Made by a program: the position numbers and the translations under genes | Sequence record: NZ_CP012903.1 | Length of the DNA stretch: 64,000 nt | Reading direction: 5' to 3' (one strand) | Source of the DNA: a plasmid | The notes under the pieces: generated by a model | Database searches by the model: none | The model's input: the letters and a program-made list of their open reading frames with translations, nothing else | Told to the model about the DNA's origin: nothing | Shown here: in pieces, positions 2,831 to 43,397 of the stretch | Position numbering within the stretch: the stretch's first letter is position 1 | How the letters are laid out: every line of letters starts with the position of its first letter

Positions 2831-3328
2831 ATGAACTCGGAATCAGTACGCATTTATCTCGTTGCTGCGATGGGAGCCAATCGGGTTATTGGCAATGGTC
2901 CTAATATCCCCTGGAAAATTCCGGGTGAGCAGAAGATTTTTCGCAGACTCACTGAGGGAAAAGTCGTTGTCATGGGGCGAAAGACCTTTGAGTCTATCGG
3001 CAAGCCTCTACCGAACCGTCACACATTGGTAATCTCACGCCAAGCTAACTACCGCGCCACTGGCTGCGTAGTTGTTTCAACGCTGTCGCACGCTATCGCT
3101 TTGGCATCCGAACTCGGCAATGAACTCTACGTCGCGGGCGGAGCTGAGATATACACTCTGGCACTACCTCACGCCCACGGCGTGTTTCTATCTGAGGTAC
3201 ATCAAACCTTCGAGGGTGACGCCTTCTTCCCAATGCTCAACGAAACAGAATTCGAGCTTGTCTCAACCGAAACCATTCAAGCTGTAATTCCGTACACCCA
3301 CTCCGTTTATGCGCGTCGAAACGGCTAA
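2831..3328 (+). CDS. dfrA12: trimethoprim-resistant dihydrofolate reductase DfrA12 (gene cassette)
   Basis: 165-aa MNSESVRIYLVAAMGANRVIGNGPNIPWKIPGEQKIF... matches DfrA12. Confidence 0.95.
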   Translation: MNSESVRIYLVAAMGANRVIGNGPNIPWKIPGEQKIFRRLTEGKVVVMGRKTFESIGKPLPNRHTLVISRQANYRATGCVVVSTLSHAIALASELGNELYVAGGAEIYTLALPHAHGVFLSEVHQTFEGDAFFPMLNETEFELVSTETIQAVIPYTHSVYARRNG

Positions 3329-3411
3329 CCATTCCGTCAACGGGACGCCAAAATGCTGCGCATTTTGGTTCCCTCCGCTGCGCTCCGGCTCTCGTTACGT
3401 CCAACGTTAGC
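3329..3411 (+). repeat. attC (59-be) of the dfrA12 cassette
   Basis: Imperfect palindrome ending in a GTTAGCA core before the next cassette. Confidence 0.35.
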
Positions 3412-3439
3412 ACCACTGAAACCCAGCTTTATTTAGCTC

Positions 3440-3730
3440 ATGTTTATTCAAACGGCATTTAGCTTTTCAGGCGTTATTCAGTGCCTGTTTTGCCTTTTTT
3501 CCGGGCTTCGCCTGCATGGGCTGCGCAGGTTTTCAGTCTTTTTGGCCTCTAGCCCTTGCGTAGCAAGCGCAAGCAGCTATCGTTTTTGCAGTGCTGTGCC
3601 GCCTCGGTGGCGCAGCGTTTTTTCACGGTTAGCGCCCGTCGCCAAATTCAAGTTATCCGTTTTGGCTTCTGGTTCTAACATTTCGGTCAAGCCGACCCGC
3701 ATTCTGCGGTCGGCTTACCTCGCCCGTTAG
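3440..3730 (+). CDS. gcuF: gcuF/orfF cassette, hypothetical protein
   Basis: 96-aa ORF between dfrA12 and aadA2, as in the dfrA12-gcuF-aadA2 array. Confidence 0.6.
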   Translation: MFIQTAFSFSGVIQCLFCLFSGLRLHGLRRFSVFLASSPCVASASSYRFCSAVPPRWRSVFSRLAPVAKFKLSVLASGSNISVKPTRILRSAYLAR

Positions 3731-3735
3731 ACATC

Positions 3736-4527
3736 ATGAGGGAAGCGGTGACCATCGAAATTTCGAACCAACTATCAGAGGTGCTAAGCGTCATTGAGCG
3801 CCATCTGGAATCAACGTTGCTGGCCGTGCATTTGTACGGCTCCGCAGTGGATGGCGGCCTGAAGCCATACAGCGATATTGATTTGTTGGTTACTGTGGCC
3901 GTAAAGCTTGATGAAACGACGCGGCGAGCATTGCTCAATGATCTTATGGAGGCTTCGGCTTTCCCTGGCGAGAGCGAGACGCTCCGCGCTATAGAAGTCA
4001 CCCTTGTCGTGCATGACGACATCATCCCGTGGCGTTATCCGGCTAAGCGCGAGCTGCAATTTGGAGAATGGCAGCGCAATGACATTCTTGCGGGTATCTT
4101 CGAGCCAGCCATGATCGACATTGATCTAGCTATCCTGCTTACAAAAGCAAGAGAACATAGCGTTGCCTTGGTAGGTCCGGCAGCGGAGGAATTCTTTGAC
4201 CCGGTTCCTGAACAGGATCTATTCGAGGCGCTGAGGGAAACCTTGAAGCTATGGAACTCGCAGCCCGACTGGGCCGGCGATGAGCGAAATGTAGTGCTTA
4301 CGTTGTCCCGCATTTGGTACAGCGCAATAACCGGCAAAATCGCGCCGAAGGATGTCGCTGCCGACTGGGCAATAAAACGCCTACCTGCCCAGTATCAGCC
4401 CGTCTTACTTGAAGCTAAGCAAGCTTATCTGGGACAAAAAGAAGATCACTTGGCCTCACGCGCAGATCACTTGGAAGAATTTATTCGCTTTGTGAAAGGC
4501 GAGATCATCAAGTCAGTTGGTAAATGA
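3736..4527 (+). CDS. aadA2: aminoglycoside 3''-adenylyltransferase AadA2 (streptomycin/spectinomycin)
   Basis: 263-aa MREAVTIEISNQLSEVLSVIERHLESTLLAVHLYGSAVDGGLKPYSDIDLLVTV... Confidence 0.95.
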   Translation: MREAVTIEISNQLSEVLSVIERHLESTLLAVHLYGSAVDGGLKPYSDIDLLVTVAVKLDETTRRALLNDLMEASAFPGESETLRAIEVTLVVHDDIIPWRYPAKRELQFGEWQRNDILAGIFEPAMIDIDLAILLTKAREHSVALVGPAAEEFFDPVPEQDLFEALRETLKLWNSQPDWAGDERNVVLTLSRIWYSAITGKIAPKDVAADWAIKRLPAQYQPVLLEAKQAYLGQKEDHLASRADHLEEFIRFVKGEIIKSVGK

Positions 4528-5889: not shown

Positions 5890-8050
5890 CCGCTAAATAT
5901 CTCCTTTTGGGTTGTTAATAAAACATCCAATAAGTTGACTGTGCGTGAAAAAGAAAGTTTTGTGTGATGGCGTTGAAGATCGCACCGTTAAGCTCTTATG
6001 TGGGATGGTGCAGAGCTCGACGACTACCGATAAAACGCAACCGCCGCAAACAGACAAGAAAAAGCCCCAACTGATAACAGTTGGGGCTTCAGTATTGTGA
6101 TTGGTGGAGCAATAGCACCCTGAACCCAAAACCTTCTCGCTCAACCGGTAGTGGCTGATAACAACTCGTGAGGGCTATTGCGGGTTAAGCATTTAGCGAT
6201 GTCTAGGGCCAGACTGGACGTCTGAACGCAAGCCGCTGATACTGTACATAACCACAGTATCAGCGGAGGATACCCATGTCGCTGGCAAGGAACGCCACGG
6301 CGAGTCAATCGCCCACTCAAACAAACGGTTACGAACGCCACCAACCCGACCAGACGCTGCTCTACCAGCTGGTTGAGCAGCACTACCCAGCCTTCAAAGC
6401 CTCACTCGAAGCCCAAGGTCAACACCTGCCTCGCTACATCCAACAAGAATTCAACGACCTCCTCCAATGTGGCCGTCTGGAGTATGGTTTCATGCGGGTT
6501 CGCTGCGAGGATTGTCATCACGAGCGTCTGGTCGCCTTCAGCTGTAAACGACGCGGCTTTTGCCCTAGCTGCGGTGCCCGCCGGATGGCCGAGAGTGCGG
6601 CGCTGCTGATAGACGAAGTCTTCCCCAAGGAGCCCATTCGCCAGTGGGTGCTCAGCTTTCCTTTCCAGCTACGCTTTTTGCTGGCTCGCCATCCCCAGCT
6701 GATGGGCCAGGTCTTGAGTATCGTCTATCGTACACTCTCAACTCATCTGATCAAAAAAGCCGGTTACACCAAAGCCTCTGCACAAACTGGCTCAGTGACT
6801 CTTATCCAACGCTTTGGCTCCGCGCTAAATCTCAATGTCCACTACCACATGCTGTTTCTCGATGGTGTCTATGCCGAAGATGACTATGGCAAGCAACGCT
6901 TCCATCGTGTCAAGGCACCCACTTACGATGAGCTGAATACGCTCGCTCACACCCTCAGCCATCGCATCGCTCGCTGCATGGAAAAGCGTGGGATTTTGGA
7001 GCGTGATGCCGAGAATACGTGGTTGACACTGGAAGAGGGCGAAGACGATACGCTGACTCAATTACATGGTGCTTCGGTTACGTATCGCATTGCCGTCGGC
7101 CCCCAGCAAGGGCGCAAAGTCTTCACCCTGCAAACCTTGCCAGGGCGTGAGGATAAAGCCGACTCAAGCAGTCGAGTAGCCAACCATGCTGGTTTCTCGC
7201 TACACGCCGGTGTGATGGCCGAAGCGCATCAGCGGGATAAGCTTGAGCGCTTGTGTCGCTACATTAGTCGGCCAGCGGTTTCAGAAAAACGTCTGGCATT
7301 AACCGCCAATGGGCAGGTGCGTTACGAGCTCAAAACTCCGTACCGCAATGGCACCACCCATGTGATCTTCGAGCCGCTGGACTTCATCGCCAAACTCGCT
7401 GCGTTGGTACCTAAGCCGCGAGTCAACCTCACACGCTTCCACGGCGTCTTTGCACCGAACAGCAAACACCGAGTTCAAGTAACACCCGCCAAGCGGGGCA
7501 AGAAGCCCGACAAATCGGAAGGTCTCGATACTAACTGGCGTGACAAGAGTCCTGCAGAGCGCCACCGCGCCATGACCTGGATGCAACGCCTCAAGCGAGT
7601 CTTCAATATTGATATTGAAGTCTGCGAACACTGCGGCGGTCACGTCAAAGTGATTGCCAGCATCGAAGATCCGAAGGTCATTGAGCAGATTCTCAAGCAT
7701 CTGAAACAGAAAACAGCCAAGGCGAATGCCGCCAAGCAGCGTGAGCTGCCACCAGAACGAGCGCCGCCACTGACTCCCAGCCTGTTCGATCCATCACAGA
7801 GTCGTCTCTTTGACTGACGACCCCAAATCCAACACTGCTCAACACTGCCAACTTTTAAACGGGGCGGTGGGGCAGTTTGTATCTCTCGAGCTATCAGGCT
7901 AGAGATTTTACCGCCAAATCGAACCTTATTAGAGCGGTTTAGGCTGGACCGGCAGTTAAAATTGGGGCTTGAGCGGTAAACGAGTGAGGGAATTTCAGGT
8001 AAGATACTTCGGATGAGGAGCAAAAAGGTGGTTTATACTTCCTATACCCC
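5890..8050 (+). mobile_element. ISCR1: ISCR1 (IS91-like rolling-circle element); 5' boundary approximate
   Basis: 513-aa transposase plus the conserved downstream terminus GGTTTATACTTCCTATACC ending near 8050. Confidence 0.75.
6276..7817 (+). CDS. orf513: ISCR1 transposase (orf513)
   Basis: 513-aa MSLARNATASQSPTQTNGYERHQPDQTLLYQLVEQHYPAF... with the HxxH...Y motif family. Confidence 0.9.
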   Translation: MSLARNATASQSPTQTNGYERHQPDQTLLYQLVEQHYPAFKASLEAQGQHLPRYIQQEFNDLLQCGRLEYGFMRVRCEDCHHERLVAFSCKRRGFCPSCGARRMAESAALLIDEVFPKEPIRQWVLSFPFQLRFLLARHPQLMGQVLSIVYRTLSTHLIKKAGYTKASAQTGSVTLIQRFGSALNLNVHYHMLFLDGVYAEDDYGKQRFHRVKAPTYDELNTLAHTLSHRIARCMEKRGILERDAENTWLTLEEGEDDTLTQLHGASVTYRIAVGPQQGRKVFTLQTLPGREDKADSSSRVANHAGFSLHAGVMAEAHQRDKLERLCRYISRPAVSEKRLALTANGQVRYELKTPYRNGTTHVIFEPLDFIAKLAALVPKPRVNLTRFHGVFAPNSKHRVQVTPAKRGKKPDKSEGLDTNWRDKSPAERHRAMTWMQRLKRVFNIDIEVCEHCGGHVKVIASIEDPKVIEQILKHLKQKTAKANAAKQRELPPERAPPLTPSLFDPSQSRLFD

Positions 8051-33338: not shown

Positions 33339-33794
33339 ATGCAAATTAATTTTGAGAATCTGACCATTGGCGTTTTTGCCAAGGCGGCCGGGGTCAATGT
33401 GGAGACCATCCGGTTCTACCAGCGCAAGGGCCTGCTGCCGGAGCCAGACAAGCCCTATGGCAGCATTCGCCGCTATGGCGAGGCGGATGTAACACGAGTG
33501 CGGTTCGTGAAATCGGCCCAGCGGCTGGGCTTTAGCCTGGACGAAATCGCCGAGCTACTGCGGCTGGAGGATGGCACCCATTGCGAGGAAGCCAGCGGCC
33601 TGGCCGAGCACAAGCTCAAGGATGTGCGCGAGAAGATGGCCGACTTGGCACGCATGGAGGCCGTGCTGTCTGAACTGGTGTGCGCCTGCCATGCGCGGAA
33701 AGGGAACGTTTCCTGCCCGCTGATTGCGTCACTGCAAGACGGAACGAAGCTCGCTGCATCGGCGCGGGGGAGTCACGGGGTGACTACGCCTTAG
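33339..33794 (+). CDS. merR: MerR-family regulator (151 aa) with divergent N-terminus (MQINFENL) and C-terminus compared with the copy at 21932
   Basis: ...[77 protein letters not shown]... Confidence 0.8.
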
Positions 33795-33970
33795 CGTGCT
33801 TTATTTTCCGAATTCTGAGACGACCCCAAATAAAAATGAACAATGAAAAGGGTAGGGGGAGAATGGCCGTTGCCGATAAAATTGTTCCCCGGTTAGTTAT
33901 TTCTCTGCCCGCTGTTAAAAGTTGAAAGTTGAAAGTTGATAACTTTGCAGTAAAATGCCGTTATCATATA

Positions 33971-33988
33971 TACTGTATAAATGTACAG
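33971..33988. promoter_or_regulatory. LexA box (SOS operator) upstream of umuD-like
   Basis: TACTGTATAAATGTACAG fits CTGT-N8-ACAG. Confidence 0.7.
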
Positions 33989-34004
33989 CGTAAGAGAGGC
34001 ATTA

Positions 34005-34442
34005 ATGTCACTAAAACCTATGAAATCAGCCCCAGACACCAAAGAAACTATCCCTTTCTTTGGCGAGCTCGTACCCGCAGGTTTCCCTAGCCCTGCTGCT
34101 GGGTGGGAAGAGGCTGAACTTAATCTTCATACGCTGGTGGTCACTCATCCAGCCAGCACGTACTTCTTGCGCGTGACAGGTGACTCCATGCAGGATGCTC
34201 GGATACATTCTGGTGACGTGCTGGTGGTTGATCGCTCAGAAACTCCAGAGCAGGGTAGTATTGTTGTTGCCAGCATCGACAACGAATTCACAGTCAAGAA
34301 ACTCATCTTGCGGCCACGTCCATGCCTTATGCCGATGAACCCGGCATACCCACCTATCTATTTTGACCCTGAAAGTAACGACGTTGAAATTTGGGGTGTG
34401 GTGACTTACTCATTAATGAAGCACAAAAAATGTATGGCCTGA
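34005..34442 (+). CDS. mucA: UmuD/MucA-like translesion-synthesis accessory protein (S24 LexA-type peptidase)
   Basis: ...AGFPSPAAGWEEAELNLHTLVVTHPASTYFLRVTGDSMQDARIHSGDVLVVDRS... matches the MucA/UmuD family; start moved to 34005 because the 33981 ATG lies inside the LexA box. Confidence 0.85.
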   Translation: MSLKPMKSAPDTKETIPFFGELVPAGFPSPAAGWEEAELNLHTLVVTHPASTYFLRVTGDSMQDARIHSGDVLVVDRSETPEQGSIVVASIDNEFTVKKLILRPRPCLMPMNPAYPPIYFDPESNDVEIWGVVTYSLMKHKKCMA

Positions 34443-35695
34443 TCGACATTAATTCCTGCTACTGTGCCTGCGAGCAAGCATTCAGGCCCGATCTTGCTGG
34501 TAAACCCGTAGTAGTTTTGTCAAACAATGATGCCAGCTGCATAGCCCGTAACAAGCAGGCGAAAGCCCTTGGTATAAAAATGGGCGAGCCATTCTTTAAA
34601 ATCAAAGATCTCATAGAACGGAACAATGTCGCTGTTTTCAGTTCAAACTATGCCCTTTATTCCGCATTTAGTTCCCGGTTTGCATCTGTTATAGAGTCAC
34701 TGACTCCGCGTAGCTCAGTGTATTCAATCGATGAACTTTGGTTTGATGCCACGAATATCACTGGTTTAATGACTCTTGATGCCTATGGCCGCATGTTGCG
34801 AGAAGAGGTACAGCGTCAGACAACGCTTACTTGTGGTGTTGGGATAGCACCGACAAAAACACTCGCTAAATTGTGTTCTCATGCTTCAAAAACCTATCCG
34901 GCAACTGGCGGAGTTGTCGCGCTTGATGATGTTACCCGTTTAGAAAAGCTGATGCGGCTTGTGCCCGTTGAAGACGTGTGGGGTGTTGGCCCACGGCTGG
35001 GTAAAAGGCTTCGGTTTATGGGAGTGGAAACCGCGTTTCAACTATCCTGCCTTGATCCTGTTCGGGTACGAAAGCAGTATAATGTTGTCCTTGAGCGTAC
35101 CGTCAGGGAACTCCGAGGGGAGCCTTGCATGGCGCTTGAAGAAAATGATGTGATGAAACAGCAAATAGTCGTTTCCCGCTCCTTCGGTGAGCGAGTCACC
35201 AACCTTCATGAAATGCAGCAAGCCATAACCGATTATGCGGCTCGCGCTGCCGAAAAACTCCGGCAAGAAAAAGGGTATGTCTCTGTAATTGGTGTTTTTA
35301 TACGCACCAGCCCCTACGCAGTAAATGATGTACCTTATTCCAATCAGGCTACTGAAATGCTGGTGACTCCCTCCAACGACAGCAGGGATATTATTAATGC
35401 TGCACAACGCGCATTAAAACGGATCTGGAGGCCAGAAGTCCGTTATGCTAAAGCAGGTGTGATGCTTTGTGATATTCGCGAGCGTGAGCCTCAACTTGAT
35501 TTGTTCACTGAATCGGCCCAGTACCGCAACAGCGAAAATCTCATGCAATTACTGGATACTCTCAACAAGCAGGGTAGACACAATTTGTTTTTTGCCGGAC
35601 AAGGTATAAACCCCGTTTTCGCAATGAAGAGAAATATGCTATCCCCTGCATATTTGACTAGCTGGGATGATTTACCAAAGGTTAGGTTAGGATAA
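34430..35695 (+). CDS. mucB: UmuC/MucB-like Y-family DNA polymerase V catalytic subunit
   Basis: MYGLIDINSCYCACEQAFRPDLAGKPVVVLSNNDASCIARNKQAKALGIKMGEPFFKIK... closely parallels MucB; overlaps mucA by 13 nt. Confidence 0.9.
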   Translation: MYGLIDINSCYCACEQAFRPDLAGKPVVVLSNNDASCIARNKQAKALGIKMGEPFFKIKDLIERNNVAVFSSNYALYSAFSSRFASVIESLTPRSSVYSIDELWFDATNITGLMTLDAYGRMLREEVQRQTTLTCGVGIAPTKTLAKLCSHASKTYPATGGVVALDDVTRLEKLMRLVPVEDVWGVGPRLGKRLRFMGVETAFQLSCLDPVRVRKQYNVVLERTVRELRGEPCMALEENDVMKQQIVVSRSFGERVTNLHEMQQAITDYAARAAEKLRQEKGYVSVIGVFIRTSPYAVNDVPYSNQATEMLVTPSNDSRDIINAAQRALKRIWRPEVRYAKAGVMLCDIREREPQLDLFTESAQYRNSENLMQLLDTLNKQGRHNLFFAGQGINPVFAMKRNMLSPAYLTSWDDLPKVRLG

Positions 35696-35934
35696 GCCCA
35701 CTAACCATCAAAAAGACATAATTTTTCCTTGGTGTTTCACTTCGCCCCCCTCACTCGTCCGGCAGCGCAATTTGGTTCTCAAGGTTACGTGTTCAAAAAC
35801 AGCTATAAGATTATGGTCACGCGCTGTAAGCCATGCCAGAACAAAATAAATTGGATTTTTTCGTAATGAAAATATAGCGACGAACGTTGCAAAACAGTTT
35901 TATTGCTACAATTCCCCTTGTTGGCTAAAATACA

Positions 35935-35952
35935 TACTGTATAAACTGACAG
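35935..35952. promoter_or_regulatory. LexA box upstream of the tus-like gene
   Basis: TACTGTATAAACTGACAG (CTGT-N8-ACAG) 12 bp before the ATG. Confidence 0.6.
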
Positions 35953-35963
35953 GGGTATCCGCT

Positions 35964-36848
35964 ATGGATTTAAAAAAAACATTTGAACAGCTTACGGACG
36001 ATTTACTCGCCCTGAAAATGCTGATCAGCGGTAGCTCGCCTCTGTTTTCCCAAGTCTCCGACATTCCGCCCGTCCTGCGGGGGGATGAGCATTTACCCAT
36101 TTCGTATGTTGCCCCTGATCACCTGTACGGCCATGAGGCCATTCAGAAGGCGGTTGATATCTGGAGTGACCTGCACATCAAGCATGATTTTTCCCAGAAG
36201 TCTGCACGTCGTGCATCCGGTGTTCTGTGGTTTCCATCAGAAGATAATGCGTTTACGGTCGAGCTCGTTCGCCTGCTGAGCCAAATCAATGCCCTGAAAA
36301 AGAGTATTGAGACTCACATCATTACGACCTACCAGACACGTAGCGCACGATTTGAAGCCCTGCATAATCAATGTGCCGGGGTGCTGACTTTACATCTTTA
36401 CCGTCAGATCCGCTGGTGGAAGGATGAGCATATATCAGCCGTGAGATTTAGCTGGCAAGAAAAGGAGTCTTTGCTCATTCCTGACAAAGCTGAGTTACTC
36501 GTGCGTATGAGCAAGGAAGGTAGGGAGGATGGGAAAAAAGAGGTGCCGCTTGCGTTGCTGATGAAGCAGATCGTTTCCGTACCGGAAGAACGACTGCGTA
36601 TAAGGCGTCGTCTCAAGGTTCAGCCATCGGCAAACATCTCGTTCCGTAGCGAGCAACACCCGACTGGGAAGCTGACAATGGTCACGGCTCCGATGCCCTT
36701 CATTATTATTCAGAATGAACGGCCAGAGGTGAAAATGCTCAAAATCTATGATGCGAATGAGCGAATCAGCCGTAAGCGACGTAACGACAAAGTGCATACG
36801 GAAATCCTCGGTACGTTTCATGGCGAAAGTATCGAAGTGATTGCCTGA
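35964..36848 (+). CDS. Tus-family (replication terminus-binding protein) homolog, 294 aa
   Basis: Collinear similarity to E. coli Tus: RRASGVLWF/RLPGVLCY, VRLLSQINALKKSIETHIIT/VSHIQHINKLKTTFEHIVT, ARFEALH..LTLHLYR/ARFEWVH..ITLNAYR, RLKVQPSANI/PVKVQPIARV. Confidence 0.7.
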   Translation: MDLKKTFEQLTDDLLALKMLISGSSPLFSQVSDIPPVLRGDEHLPISYVAPDHLYGHEAIQKAVDIWSDLHIKHDFSQKSARRASGVLWFPSEDNAFTVELVRLLSQINALKKSIETHIITTYQTRSARFEALHNQCAGVLTLHLYRQIRWWKDEHISAVRFSWQEKESLLIPDKAELLVRMSKEGREDGKKEVPLALLMKQIVSVPEERLRIRRRLKVQPSANISFRSEQHPTGKLTMVTAPMPFIIIQNERPEVKMLKIYDANERISRKRRNDKVHTEILGTFHGESIEVIA

Positions 36849-36882
36849 TAAGGTTTTTCTGGACATTATCCTTTGGTAGTAT

Positions 36883-36902
36883 TACTGTATATGTATACAG
36901 TA
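36883..36902. promoter_or_regulatory. LexA box (perfect palindrome) upstream of the dinI-like gene
   Basis: TACTGTATATGTATACAGTA. Confidence 0.75.
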
Positions 36903-36918
36903 AATTACCGGGGGGTAT

Positions 36919-37152
36919 ATGTTACGTATAAATGTGTGTTTCGATGCCAGCAAGAAAGTGCCTGCTAAAATCCAGCAGGCATTACGAGCTGAGATAGAGA
37001 AAGAGATCTTGTCTAATTACGAACGTGGTGTGGTAAGCGTGGGGAAGGGAAGCAGTGCAGAAGTGTCGATCAGTGGCGTTGATGATGATGAAAAAAAAGT
37101 AATAATGCAGAAGCTTGAAGACATCTGGCAAAGTGACAGCTGGTTGCCTTGA
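36919..37152 (+). CDS. dinI: DinI-family SOS protein (77 aa)
   Basis: C-terminal ...KLEDIWQSDSWLP resembles DinI ...ETWESADDWF; gene is LexA-box preceded. Confidence 0.65.
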   Translation: MLRINVCFDASKKVPAKIQQALRAEIEKEILSNYERGVVSVGKGSSAEVSISGVDDDEKKVIMQKLEDIWQSDSWLP

Positions 37153-37166
37153 TCGTTTTATTTTTT

Positions 37167-37192
37167 GCATGTGAACTGGGCTTCTGGCCCAG
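37167..37192 (+). terminator. rho-independent terminator after dinI-like
   Basis: CTGGGCTTCTGGCCCAG hairpin followed by T9. Confidence 0.7.
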
Positions 37193-37338
37193 TTTTTTTT
37201 TGCCCTAAATCTGCACGATAGCTATTCGACCCTCATCCTGAGTGTGTGACCATATTGGACTTACAGATAGGGCTGGCGGTCACGCCCACCAGCGGAACCT
37301 CATCATTTATCACCATTTCATTAAGTAAAGGAGGTTAT

Positions 37339-43091: not shown

Positions 43092-43397
43092 TTACATTTT
43101 ATCATCTTTAGCCATGCTATCTTTAGCCATGCTATCTTTAGCCATGCTATCTTTAGCCATGCTATCTTTAGCCATGCTATCTTTAGCCATGCTATCTTTA
43201 GCCATGCTATCTTTAGCCATGCTATCTTTAGCCATGCTATCTTTAGCCATGCTATCTTTAGCCATGCTGTCTTTAGCCATGCTGTCTTTAGCCATGCTAT
43301 CTTTAGCCATGCTGTCTTTAGCCATGCTGTCTGCATAAGAAGCTGCAGCTGTCATACATAACGCACTAGTTAAGATTACCAATATTAATTTTTTCAT
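43092..43397 (-). CDS. secreted repeat protein: signal peptide plus (DSMAK)x14
   Basis: [22 protein letters not shown] then [10 protein letters not shown]...DDKM; the other two frames of the repeat give AWLKI/AMLSL runs and are rejected. Confidence 0.55.
43111..43335. repeat. tandem array of about 15 copies of a 15-bp unit GCCATGCT(A/G)TCTTTA
   Basis: Direct reading; units are contiguous and in phase with the minus-strand coding frame. Confidence 0.9.

Follow-up and report, generated by a model that had tools for sequence, protein, structure and literature searches.

We analysed a 64,000-nucleotide (nt) stretch of plasmid DNA from sequence record NZ_CP012903.1 (the window), which carries an island of predicted SOS genes between 33.8 and 37.2 kb. 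In this order, the island consists of a transposon end, a LexA box followed by umuD- and umuC-like genes, a second LexA box followed by a homologue of tus, the gene for the replication terminus protein of Escherichia coli, a third LexA box followed by a dinI-like gene, and a hairpin (Table 1). The best overall explanation of this arrangement, which we regard as moderately probable, is that a genuine Tus protein under SOS control would act at a pair of Ter-like sites close to the plasmid origin.

LexA boxes and the Tus-family protein of the island

The initial annotation placed LexA operators at 33971, 35935 and 36883, immediately 5' of three consecutive transcription units, and all three 20-mers are present at these coordinates. 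The pattern CTGT-N8-ACAG occurs five times in the window against 0.66 expected, and none of 100 shuffled sequences reached five. Three of the five copies lie within 3 kb, each on the same strand as, and 15, 10 and 17 nt 5' of, a start codon. Scoring used a position matrix made from 29 LexA sites of E. coli, and all scores are approximate; these training sites score 12.5-26.0 bits, and since all three boxes of the island score inside that range, they fall in the functional range. Box 3 differs from the full palindromic consensus by one mismatch, and box 1 is also found in the plasmid Rts1 with one base differing in the right flank. As annotated, the second box, that of tus, is weaker than both others and belongs to the class of dinG, uvrD and polB-type operators.

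The boxes differ in their placement relative to predicted or inferred promoters. The distance from the predicted -10 element to the start of the box is 15 nt for box 1 and 4 nt for box 2, and box 3 contains the inferred -10 element. Box 2 thus lies over the predicted tus transcription start. The tus -10 region GGTTAAAAT and a TTGnnn -35 element are kept in most related lineages. A palindrome, AAAAC-A-GTTTT (35891-35901), abuts the tus -35 element. The closer lineages share it, and two other lineages (L020 and L021) have another palindrome, GGCAATATTGCC or GGCAAGATTGCC, in its place; the palindrome may be a candidate site for a second, dimeric regulator. The sequence TTGCTACAAT at the tus -35 element was considered as a degenerate Ter site and dropped, as there are no related copies elsewhere.

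The initial annotation also described the 294-amino acid (aa) product of the middle gene as collinear with Tus and named profile and structure comparison as the check. The length is correct, and every comparison points to Tus. PF05472 (Ter) matches with an expectation (E) value of 1.6e-45, residues 3-283 aligning with profile positions 2-291 of 296, and the protein scores 430.9 bits against NCBIfam NF002810 (cutoff 323). It scores 99.5 bits against TIGR02648, the chromosomal-type equivalog, which is below the cutoff of 178.3. Among protein sequences of the PDB, HMMER matched only E. coli Tus (1ECR, E 1.8e-17 over residues 3-265). An AlphaFold2 model built with 25 homologues had a predicted local distance difference test (pLDDT) value of 86.9 and a predicted template modelling (pTM) score of 0.79; in a Foldseek comparison of this model with the PDB, only four E. 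coli Tus chains were significant (E 1.8e-22 to 8.5e-21, template modelling score 0.70-0.73), the next match having an E value of 0.49. In total, we conclude from sequence profiles and predicted fold that the 294-aa protein is a true member of the Tus family.

The window protein and E. coli Tus are 28% identical overall. In alignments, the residues of E. coli Tus that are identical in the window protein include E49, I79, K89, F140, H144, G149, R232 and Q237. Among 22 mobile Tus proteins, E49, F140, R232 and Q237 are present in all 22, I79 and G149 in 19 each, and H144 in 14. In the locked complex of E. coli Tus, cytosine 6 of Ter is captured by a pocket made up of I79, F140, H144 and G149; E49 is required to arrest forks and not for binding.

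The classification of the genes on either side of tus as umuDC/mucAB-like and dinI-like also stands, with two refinements. The first unit fits the UmuDC (polymerase V) family, with an S24 self-cleaving subunit followed by a Y-family polymerase subunit: both genes exceed their profile cutoffs, they overlap by 13 nt, and the translated umuD-like gene contains an Ala-Gly self-cleavage site (VPA/GFPSPAAG), the serine of a GDSM motif and the lysine of a TVKK motif. The name mucAB-like is an acceptable description, the assignment being at the level of the UmuDC family. The product of the third unit has the Pfam DinI domain (PF06183), scores 32 bits against the NCBIfam DinI equivalog (below the cutoff of 111) and matches the E. 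coli DinI structure 1GHH weakly (E 0.008). Because the Pfam domain is matched and the equivalog is not, we refer to this gene as dinI-like and not as a dinI orthologue.

Conservation of the tus box

We collected tus homologues from plasmids and from a large protein collection and compared their loci, which are here numbered with the prefix L; by tblastn, Tus homologues were found in 1332 plasmid records. The tus box is intact in nine of 12 lineages, down to a protein identity of 51% (Table 1). Its CTGT and ACAG arms are kept while the spacer takes five differing forms among lineages (ATAAACTG, ATAAACCA, ATAAAGCA, ATAAATAA and ATAAAAAC), and kept arms with varying spacers are the pattern expected of a selected operator. 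Moreover, identity to seven lineages is 55-96% for the tus promoter (-75 to -1) and 57-93% for the coding sequence, the promoter being the higher of the two in six of the seven comparisons; DNA 5' of the promoter region is unalignable (17-41% identity).

The dinI-like gene follows tus in 10 lineages, each with a near-consensus box that is intact in all 10. The dinI promoters of these lineages consist of CTGGACA, a variable 17-nt spacer and TACTGT, so that the left arm of the box doubles as the -10 element. By contrast with this pair, umuDC is found only in incompatibility group T (IncT) plasmids and, separately, in L006, the Tus of which is 41% identical to that of the window; UmuC identity between the two is 47%. 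The conserved core is thus tus-dinI with two LexA boxes, to which umuDC is an add-on.

Could the tus box be a weak LexA-like sequence that happens to lie beside real SOS genes, with tus expressed constitutively or by read-through from umuDC? The umuC-tus and tus-dinI spacers measure 268 and 70 nt, and a terminator scan found no terminator-like site in either; the hairpin at 37173-37203 is the sole intergenic terminator-like site that the scan found in the island. Read-through from upstream genes is thus possible besides transcription from each gene's own boxed promoter. An incidental box would also account for its being the weakest of the three and for its decay in three lineages (L017, L018 and L022), where, for example, one arm has become TCAG (L018) or 1 bp is deleted (L022). 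However, the box is retained, at an unchanged distance from the tus ATG, in lineages that lack umuDC altogether, and neither the conservation of the arms with a varying spacer nor a promoter that is better conserved than the coding sequence between unalignable flanks is expected of a chance match. We regard an incidental box as very unlikely and conclude from the comparison of sequences that the tus box is no accident and is conserved as an operator across lineages.

In L017 (a Xenorhabdus bovienii contig, 2970-4100), the tus box has decayed to CTGC...TCAG, the dinI-like gene is seemingly a pseudogene and its box has decayed too, with one arm reading ATAG; judged from this sequence, both SOS features appear to have been lost together.

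The LexA box 5' of tus is absent in the more distant mobile tus genes of IncC plasmids (44% identity), pAQU1, an Aeromonas plasmid, L007, L010 and L024. Sequences of the form ATGK-N8-ACAG 5' of tus in L003, L004 and L006 were not counted as LexA boxes, their heterology index-like (HI-like) value being ~13. In these three loci (41-47% identity; L003 3929-4000, L004 3930-4000, L006 3936-4000), this poor LexA-like sequence precedes a shared leader made up of a GC hairpin (CCCC...GGGG) and, directly 5' of the ATG, CCCTTTTTCGGGGAT. A DinI-like partner was sought beside the distant tus genes of L003, L006 and L024, and none was found.

Ter-like pairs and a candidate fork trap

Sites of the E. coli type were searched with a 23-bp matrix made from ten Ter sites, among which TerB was verified. 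Of a possible 31.1, scores in the window and in the whole of the IncT plasmid pT-OXA-181 peaked at 13-15, and no site reached 14 in 22 related loci; given these low scores, canonical Ter sites are absent there. The scan for Ter-like sites with a GTTGTAACTA core, which the initial annotation had proposed, accordingly gave nothing in the window, pT-OXA-181 or the related loci. The comparison with related plasmids described below suggests that the cognate site is likely to differ from E. coli Ter in its right half and to lie outside the window.

A repeat search of the origin region of Rts1 returned a 27-nt inverted repeat, 96% complementary, at 3828-3854 and 4248-4274, between repA (311-1177) and umuD (4464). 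Its core is TTGCATGTTGGTTTAAT, and the Ter-like site on related plasmids including pT-OXA-181 is TTGYATGTTGGTYTAAT. The motif corresponds to E. coli Ter positions 6-13 (G-Y-ATGTTG), including the G/C(6) pair. With the consensus TTGYATG(T/A)TGGTYTAAT, it forms an inverted pair 5' of tus, 145-565 bp apart and always in the order (-)...(+), in Rts1, pT-OXA-181, L003, L004, L005 (IncC), L008 (pAQU1), L013, L020, L021, L023, L024 and L025. With a variant of the pair in L007, at least 13 lineages carry it, the orientation always being the same. The spacing in IncT plasmids is ~400 bp, and pT-OXA-181 has exactly one pair in 83.7 kb. Between the two sites lie a conserved hairpin and a long GA-rich polypurine tract. 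The motif was matched 23 times in 11 loci against 0.3 in shuffled sequences, a count that is partly circular since the motif was refined on those same loci.

We verified the position of E. coli TerB, which is on the sense strand 11 nt 5' of the tus ATG, and the tus-proximal Ter-like site is oriented to tus as TerB is. TerB autoregulates E. coli tus. In the IncC plasmid, pAQU1 and the Aeromonas plasmid, the tus-proximal site lies over the -35 element of a TTGCAT-17-TAnnnT promoter 55-60 nt 5' of tus, which by analogy suggests Tus autoregulation like that of TerB-tus. In the LexA-box clade, the Ter-like site is at least 180 nt from the tus promoter. Thus, mobile tus genes appear from their promoter sequences to follow two regulatory designs, a LexA box or a Ter site in the promoter, and the window has the LexA design.

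A second tus-like match is present in Rts1 (NC_003905.1; two places by tblastn), and the Providencia plasmid NZ_AP022376.1 combines the IncT umuD region with a tus of the 47% type; two Tus types with differing site variants may therefore occur on one plasmid.

For the moderately probable explanation given at the outset, we propose the following mechanism. LexA would repress three adjacent units that encode a translesion polymerase (umuDC), a fork barrier (tus) and a DinI-like modulator of RecA. Because the tus operator is the weakest and lies over the predicted start, tus would be only partly repressed, giving basal Tus, and would be the first unit to be derepressed when activated RecA causes cleavage of LexA; the dinI-like gene, having a near-consensus operator, would be derepressed last. 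Such a relation between operator strength and timing is well established for the E. coli SOS response. In the ancestral IncT layout, the target of Tus would most likely be the single inverted pair with the core TTGCATGTTGGTTTAAT between the origin (repA and iterons) and the umuD promoter. The non-permissive face of E. coli Ter is on the position-1 side; with TerB-like polarity, both sites would face the interval, and forks could enter but not leave this miniature fork trap. The pair would stop the fork that arrives after a few kb and set the end point of the other fork, making replication effectively unidirectional with a terminus beside the origin. The SOS response would raise the occupancy of the trap by Tus when abnormal forks, i.e. 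recombination-dependent, rolling-circle or re-initiated forks, are likeliest, and this occupancy would limit over-replication and the formation of multimers. Meanwhile, UmuD'2C (polymerase V) would bypass lesions, and the DinI-like protein would modulate RecA filaments, possibly at the arrested fork too.

A single inverted pair of E. coli-like polarity would stop only the fork that arrives first, the other completing the plasmid, so that copying would be redirected and not halted. This geometry, as well as the weak operator (HI-like 8.9), which predicts appreciable basal Tus and not an off state, argues against a damage checkpoint in which Tus is normally low and induced Tus halts plasmid replication near the origin until LexA is restored, acting as a brake and not as a terminus. 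Such a checkpoint would nonetheless fit the LexA control itself, the distance of only ~2-3 kb between the Ter-like pair and the IncT iterons, and the linkage of tus to umuDC, the uncleaved products of which are reported to act as a checkpoint in E. coli (PMC4045847). We consider it somewhat unlikely.

Several observations weigh against an SOS-controlled Tus that acts at the Ter-like pair. The loop that bears R198 in E. coli Tus is missing in all 22 aligned mobile Tus proteins, and the Ter-like motif diverges from E. coli Ter at positions 14-20; with the loop missing and the right half of the site differing, the mode of DNA binding may differ. The Ter-like pair was not found in a search of the window, and the resistance island is inserted at that very junction, which makes survival of the pair on this plasmid uncertain. 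The tus box is degenerate in three of 12 lineages, the LexA scores are approximate and the motif enrichment is partly circular. Moreover, containment of aberrant forks is a rationale by analogy with work on E. coli and plasmid R1, and we infer every functional step, namely binding, the order of induction, arrest and its polarity, from sequence.

Some of these points could instead mean that the boxes work and the Tus homologue does not act on forks, having instead another DNA-binding role such as transcription control or site protection during the SOS response or conjugative entry. The low identity to E. coli Tus, the missing R198 loop, the lack of E. coli-type Ter sites in the window, pT-OXA-181 or the related loci, and the conserved hairpin and long polypurine tract between the Ter-like sites would all suit such a role. 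Pure DNA binding, however, needs neither E49, the fork-arrest residue, nor the C6 pocket of I79, F140, H144 and G149, and these are kept. The candidate sites likewise keep G/C(6) and ATGTTG, and the inverted-pair geometry and origin-proximal position match the plasmid termini of R6K and R1. We therefore hold a non-replicative role to be unlikely. Likewise, of the two readings in the initial annotation, damage-inducible fork arrest and recruitment of a Tus-fold protein to a different function, the second is the less likely because the lock-pocket and DNA-strand residues are kept and mobile tus genes, those of IncT plasmids among them, come with inverted pairs of Ter-like sites.

Beyond the SOS-controlled Tus of IncT plasmids, we tentatively suggest a broader possibility, which we regard as possible rather than probable. 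Mobile tus genes might be self-contained fork-trap cassettes, made up of a Ter-like pair, a hairpin/polypurine region and tus, that come in two regulatory designs: one autoregulated through Ter, as in the IncC type and the domesticated E. coli TerB-tus, and one rewired to LexA together with dinI, as in IncT plasmids. In the latter, the direction and termination of replication might be damage-responsive.

Borders of the island, known systems and implications

Coordinates of the island and its genes are positions in the window, in plus-strand order, and are collected with those of the related loci in Table 1. With the island as query, the first 34 bases match many unrelated plasmids only there, and homology to Rts1 and other IncT plasmids begins at query base 29.

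Table 1. Features of the SOS island in the window, tus boxes of related lineages and Ter-like sites (E, expectation value; HI-like, heterology index-like value)
Feature	Locus	Position	Strand	Remarks
Terminal inverted repeat of Tn21-family mercury transposon	Window	33790-33827		Right edge of resistance island; IncT backbone from 33828
Predicted sigma-70 promoter of umuDC	Window	33929-33956	+	TTGAAA-16-TAAAAT; consensus scan, 10/12 matches
LexA box 1	Window	33971-33990		TACTGTATAAATGTACAGCG; 15 nt 5' of umuD ATG; 21.5 bits, HI-like 5.0
umuD-like gene	Window	34005-34442	+	145 aa; Peptidase_S24 E 1.9e-27; NF007621 148 bits, cutoff 110
umuC-like Y-family polymerase gene	Window	34430-35695	+	421 aa; IMS, IMS_C, DUF4113; NF002955 570.6 bits, cutoff 431
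Predicted sigma-70 promoter of tus	Window	35903-35931	+	TTGCTA-17-TAAAAT; consensus scan
LexA box 2	Window	35935-35954		TACTGTATAAACTGACAGGG; 10 nt 5' of tus ATG; 16.1 bits, HI-like 8.9
tus homologue	Window	35964-36848	+	294 aa; identical to WP_011039692.1 of Rts1 and pT-OXA-181
Inferred dinI-like promoter	Window	36860-36888	+	TGGACA-17-TACTGT; read from sequence, not reported by consensus scan
LexA box 3	Window	36883-36902		TACTGTATATGTATACAGTA; 17 nt 5' of dinI-like start; 25.8 bits, HI-like 1.9
dinI-like gene	Window	36919-37152	+	77 aa; PF06183 E 7.1e-13, 49.1 bits, cutoff 24.2
Intrinsic-terminator-like hairpin and T run	Window	37173-37203	+	10-bp stem, 5 GC pairs, TTTTTTT tail; closes island
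tus box kept	L016	29-30 nt before ATG		Tus identity to window 94%
tus box kept	L013-L015	29-30 nt before ATG		Tus identity to window 70%
tus box kept	L025	29-30 nt before ATG		Tus identity to window 64%
tus box kept	L019	29-30 nt before ATG		Tus identity to window 56%
tus box kept	L021	29-30 nt before ATG		Tus identity to window 55%
tus box kept	L020	29-30 nt before ATG		Tus identity to window 54%
tus box kept	L023	29-30 nt before ATG		Tus identity to window 51%
Ter-like pair	Rts1 (L026)	3833-3849 / 4253-4269	- / +	
Ter-like pair	pT-OXA-181 (L012)	8976 / 9380	- / +	
Ter-like pair	L013	1797 / 2107		
Ter-like pair	L025	826 / 1123		
Ter-like pair	L005 (IncC)	3720 / 3913		
Ter-like pair	L008 (pAQU1)	657 / 850		
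Ter-like site and overlapped promoter	L005	3913-3986		
Ter-like site and overlapped promoter	L008	850-918		
Ter-like site and overlapped promoter	L009	3914-3986		

The 3.5-kb island is 100% identical to pT-OXA-181 from Citrobacter freundii, and nine plasmids of Providencia and Escherichia sp. that contain at least 90% of it are 99.1-99.5% identical. In Rts1, repA with flanking iterons is followed by two small genes, umuD and a truncated umuC, after which there is a large insertion, tus-dinI lying at 69.6 kb; in other IncT plasmids, the order repA ... umuDC-tus-dinI is uninterrupted. Based on this unbroken order, the island is an origin-proximal module of the IncT backbone. The resistance island of the window is inserted just 5' of the umuD promoter, at about Rts1 position 4294 and ~20 bp past the tus-proximal Ter-like site, and thus parts the SOS island from the position of the candidate terminus. 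Just 5' of the umuD promoter there are also short tandem repeats, AAAGTTG AAAGTTG AAAGTTG ATAAC (33913-33940), of which Rts1 has one copy fewer.

Window and pT-OXA-181 are colinear only over 29.7-47.8 kb and a few blocks at 49-64 kb; the left 30 kb of the window is a multiresistance region unlike pT-OXA-181. This composite region (1-33827) includes a class 1 integron, sul1, copies of IS26, msr(E)-type genes and a mercury resistance (mer) operon. Relative to pT-OXA-181, a blast breakpoint marks a 189-bp deletion at the merC/merP junction; merP and merT seem to be altered or fused open reading frames in the window, for which this deletion alone may not account.

Two further LexA-type boxes lie in this region. 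The box at 2697-2716 (GACTGTTTTTTTGTACAGTC) is in the promoter of the class 1 integron integrase gene intI1, and the identical sequence lies beside the annotated intI1 in pT-OXA-181 (L001 3101); integron integrases are known to be under SOS control. The box at 6240-6259 (TACTGTACATAACCACAGTA; 18.8 bits, HI-like 7.0) is inside a short palindrome, gctgaTACTGT...ACAGTAtcagc, and ends 16 nt 5' of a 513-aa open reading frame (6276-7817) that comes after sul1 and, by position and size, looks like a candidate ISCR1 transposase gene. To the right of the island, 15-nt tandem repeats at 43104-43332 match a pT-OXA-181 gene annotated as pentapeptide MXKDX repeat protein, the neighbours of which are toxin-antitoxin genes of the IncT backbone. 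A comparison of 33.0-38.5 kb with Rfam gave nothing but one chance match below threshold.

The module resembles E. coli Tus-Ter in protein family and fold, lock-pocket residues, Ter positions 6-13 including G/C(6), and the orientation of TerB, and differs from it in the 28% protein identity, the missing R198 loop and the right half of the site. While E. coli tus has TerB directly before its ATG, the window tus promoter has a LexA box and no Ter-like site, and to our knowledge E. coli tus is not in the LexA regulon. E. coli Ter sites also form two clusters across the terminus, whereas the candidate trap is one tight pair. The inverted Ter pair of R6K and the Ter sites near oriR of R1 and R100 share with the candidate trap an inverted polar pair near the origin, which is expected to make replication unidirectional and to keep rolling-circle or multimer products from forming. 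Those plasmids use host Tus and E. coli-type Ter; here, the plasmid has its own diverged Tus and its own type of site, tied to the SOS response in the IncT clade.

The classic plasmid SOS mutagenesis operons mucAB of pKM101 and impCAB, which includes the DinI-like ImpC, similarly bring together a small DinI-family gene and an operon of the umuDC type that has a LexA box and is carried by a conjugative plasmid. Unlike there, the dinI-like gene of the window is 3' and has its own operator, with tus and a third operator in between, and most related lineages have the conserved pair tus-dinI without umuDC.

The abstract of the Rts1 genome paper by Murata et al. (2002) reportedly mentions tus-like genes, and the Tus of the window is identical to the tus-like product of Rts1. 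The tus genes of IncA/C plasmids and pAQU1 have been described (PMC4036041), and mobile tus genes and their proposed domestication into chromosomes as well (Galli et al. 2019, PMC6549158). These reports on plasmid tus are at the level of annotation or phylogeny, and LexA control and cognate Ter-like pairs are unmentioned in the searchable literature. Our literature search for Tus in connection with LexA or the SOS response, for umuDC or LexA in connection with Rts1 or IncT plasmids, or for the Ter-like sequences, gave no relevant paper, most subscription journals being outside its reach. Altogether, the components are known, and the regulatory wiring and the architecture of the cassette appear to be undescribed.

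Tus-Ter is the textbook bacterial fork barrier and is treated as a constitutive, autoregulated housekeeping system, the purpose of which is still debated. If a clade of Tus proteins is controlled by the damage repressor, with a RecA modulator, and often a translesion polymerase, encoded alongside, fork trapping would be connected with damage tolerance. The module would be a natural system in which to study what fork traps are for, since it resides on a plasmid, is small and non-essential, has a single candidate pair of sites and encodes a barrier protein that is expected to be inducible. Moreover, a published proposal holds that a mobile module was domesticated to give chromosomal tus-TerB, and the comparison with promoters of the IncC type supports it. 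Finally, the module is carried by resistance plasmids of clinical importance in Providencia, Proteus, Klebsiella and Citrobacter, hosts in which SOS-inducing antibiotics could shift plasmid replication mode, stability and mutagenesis together.

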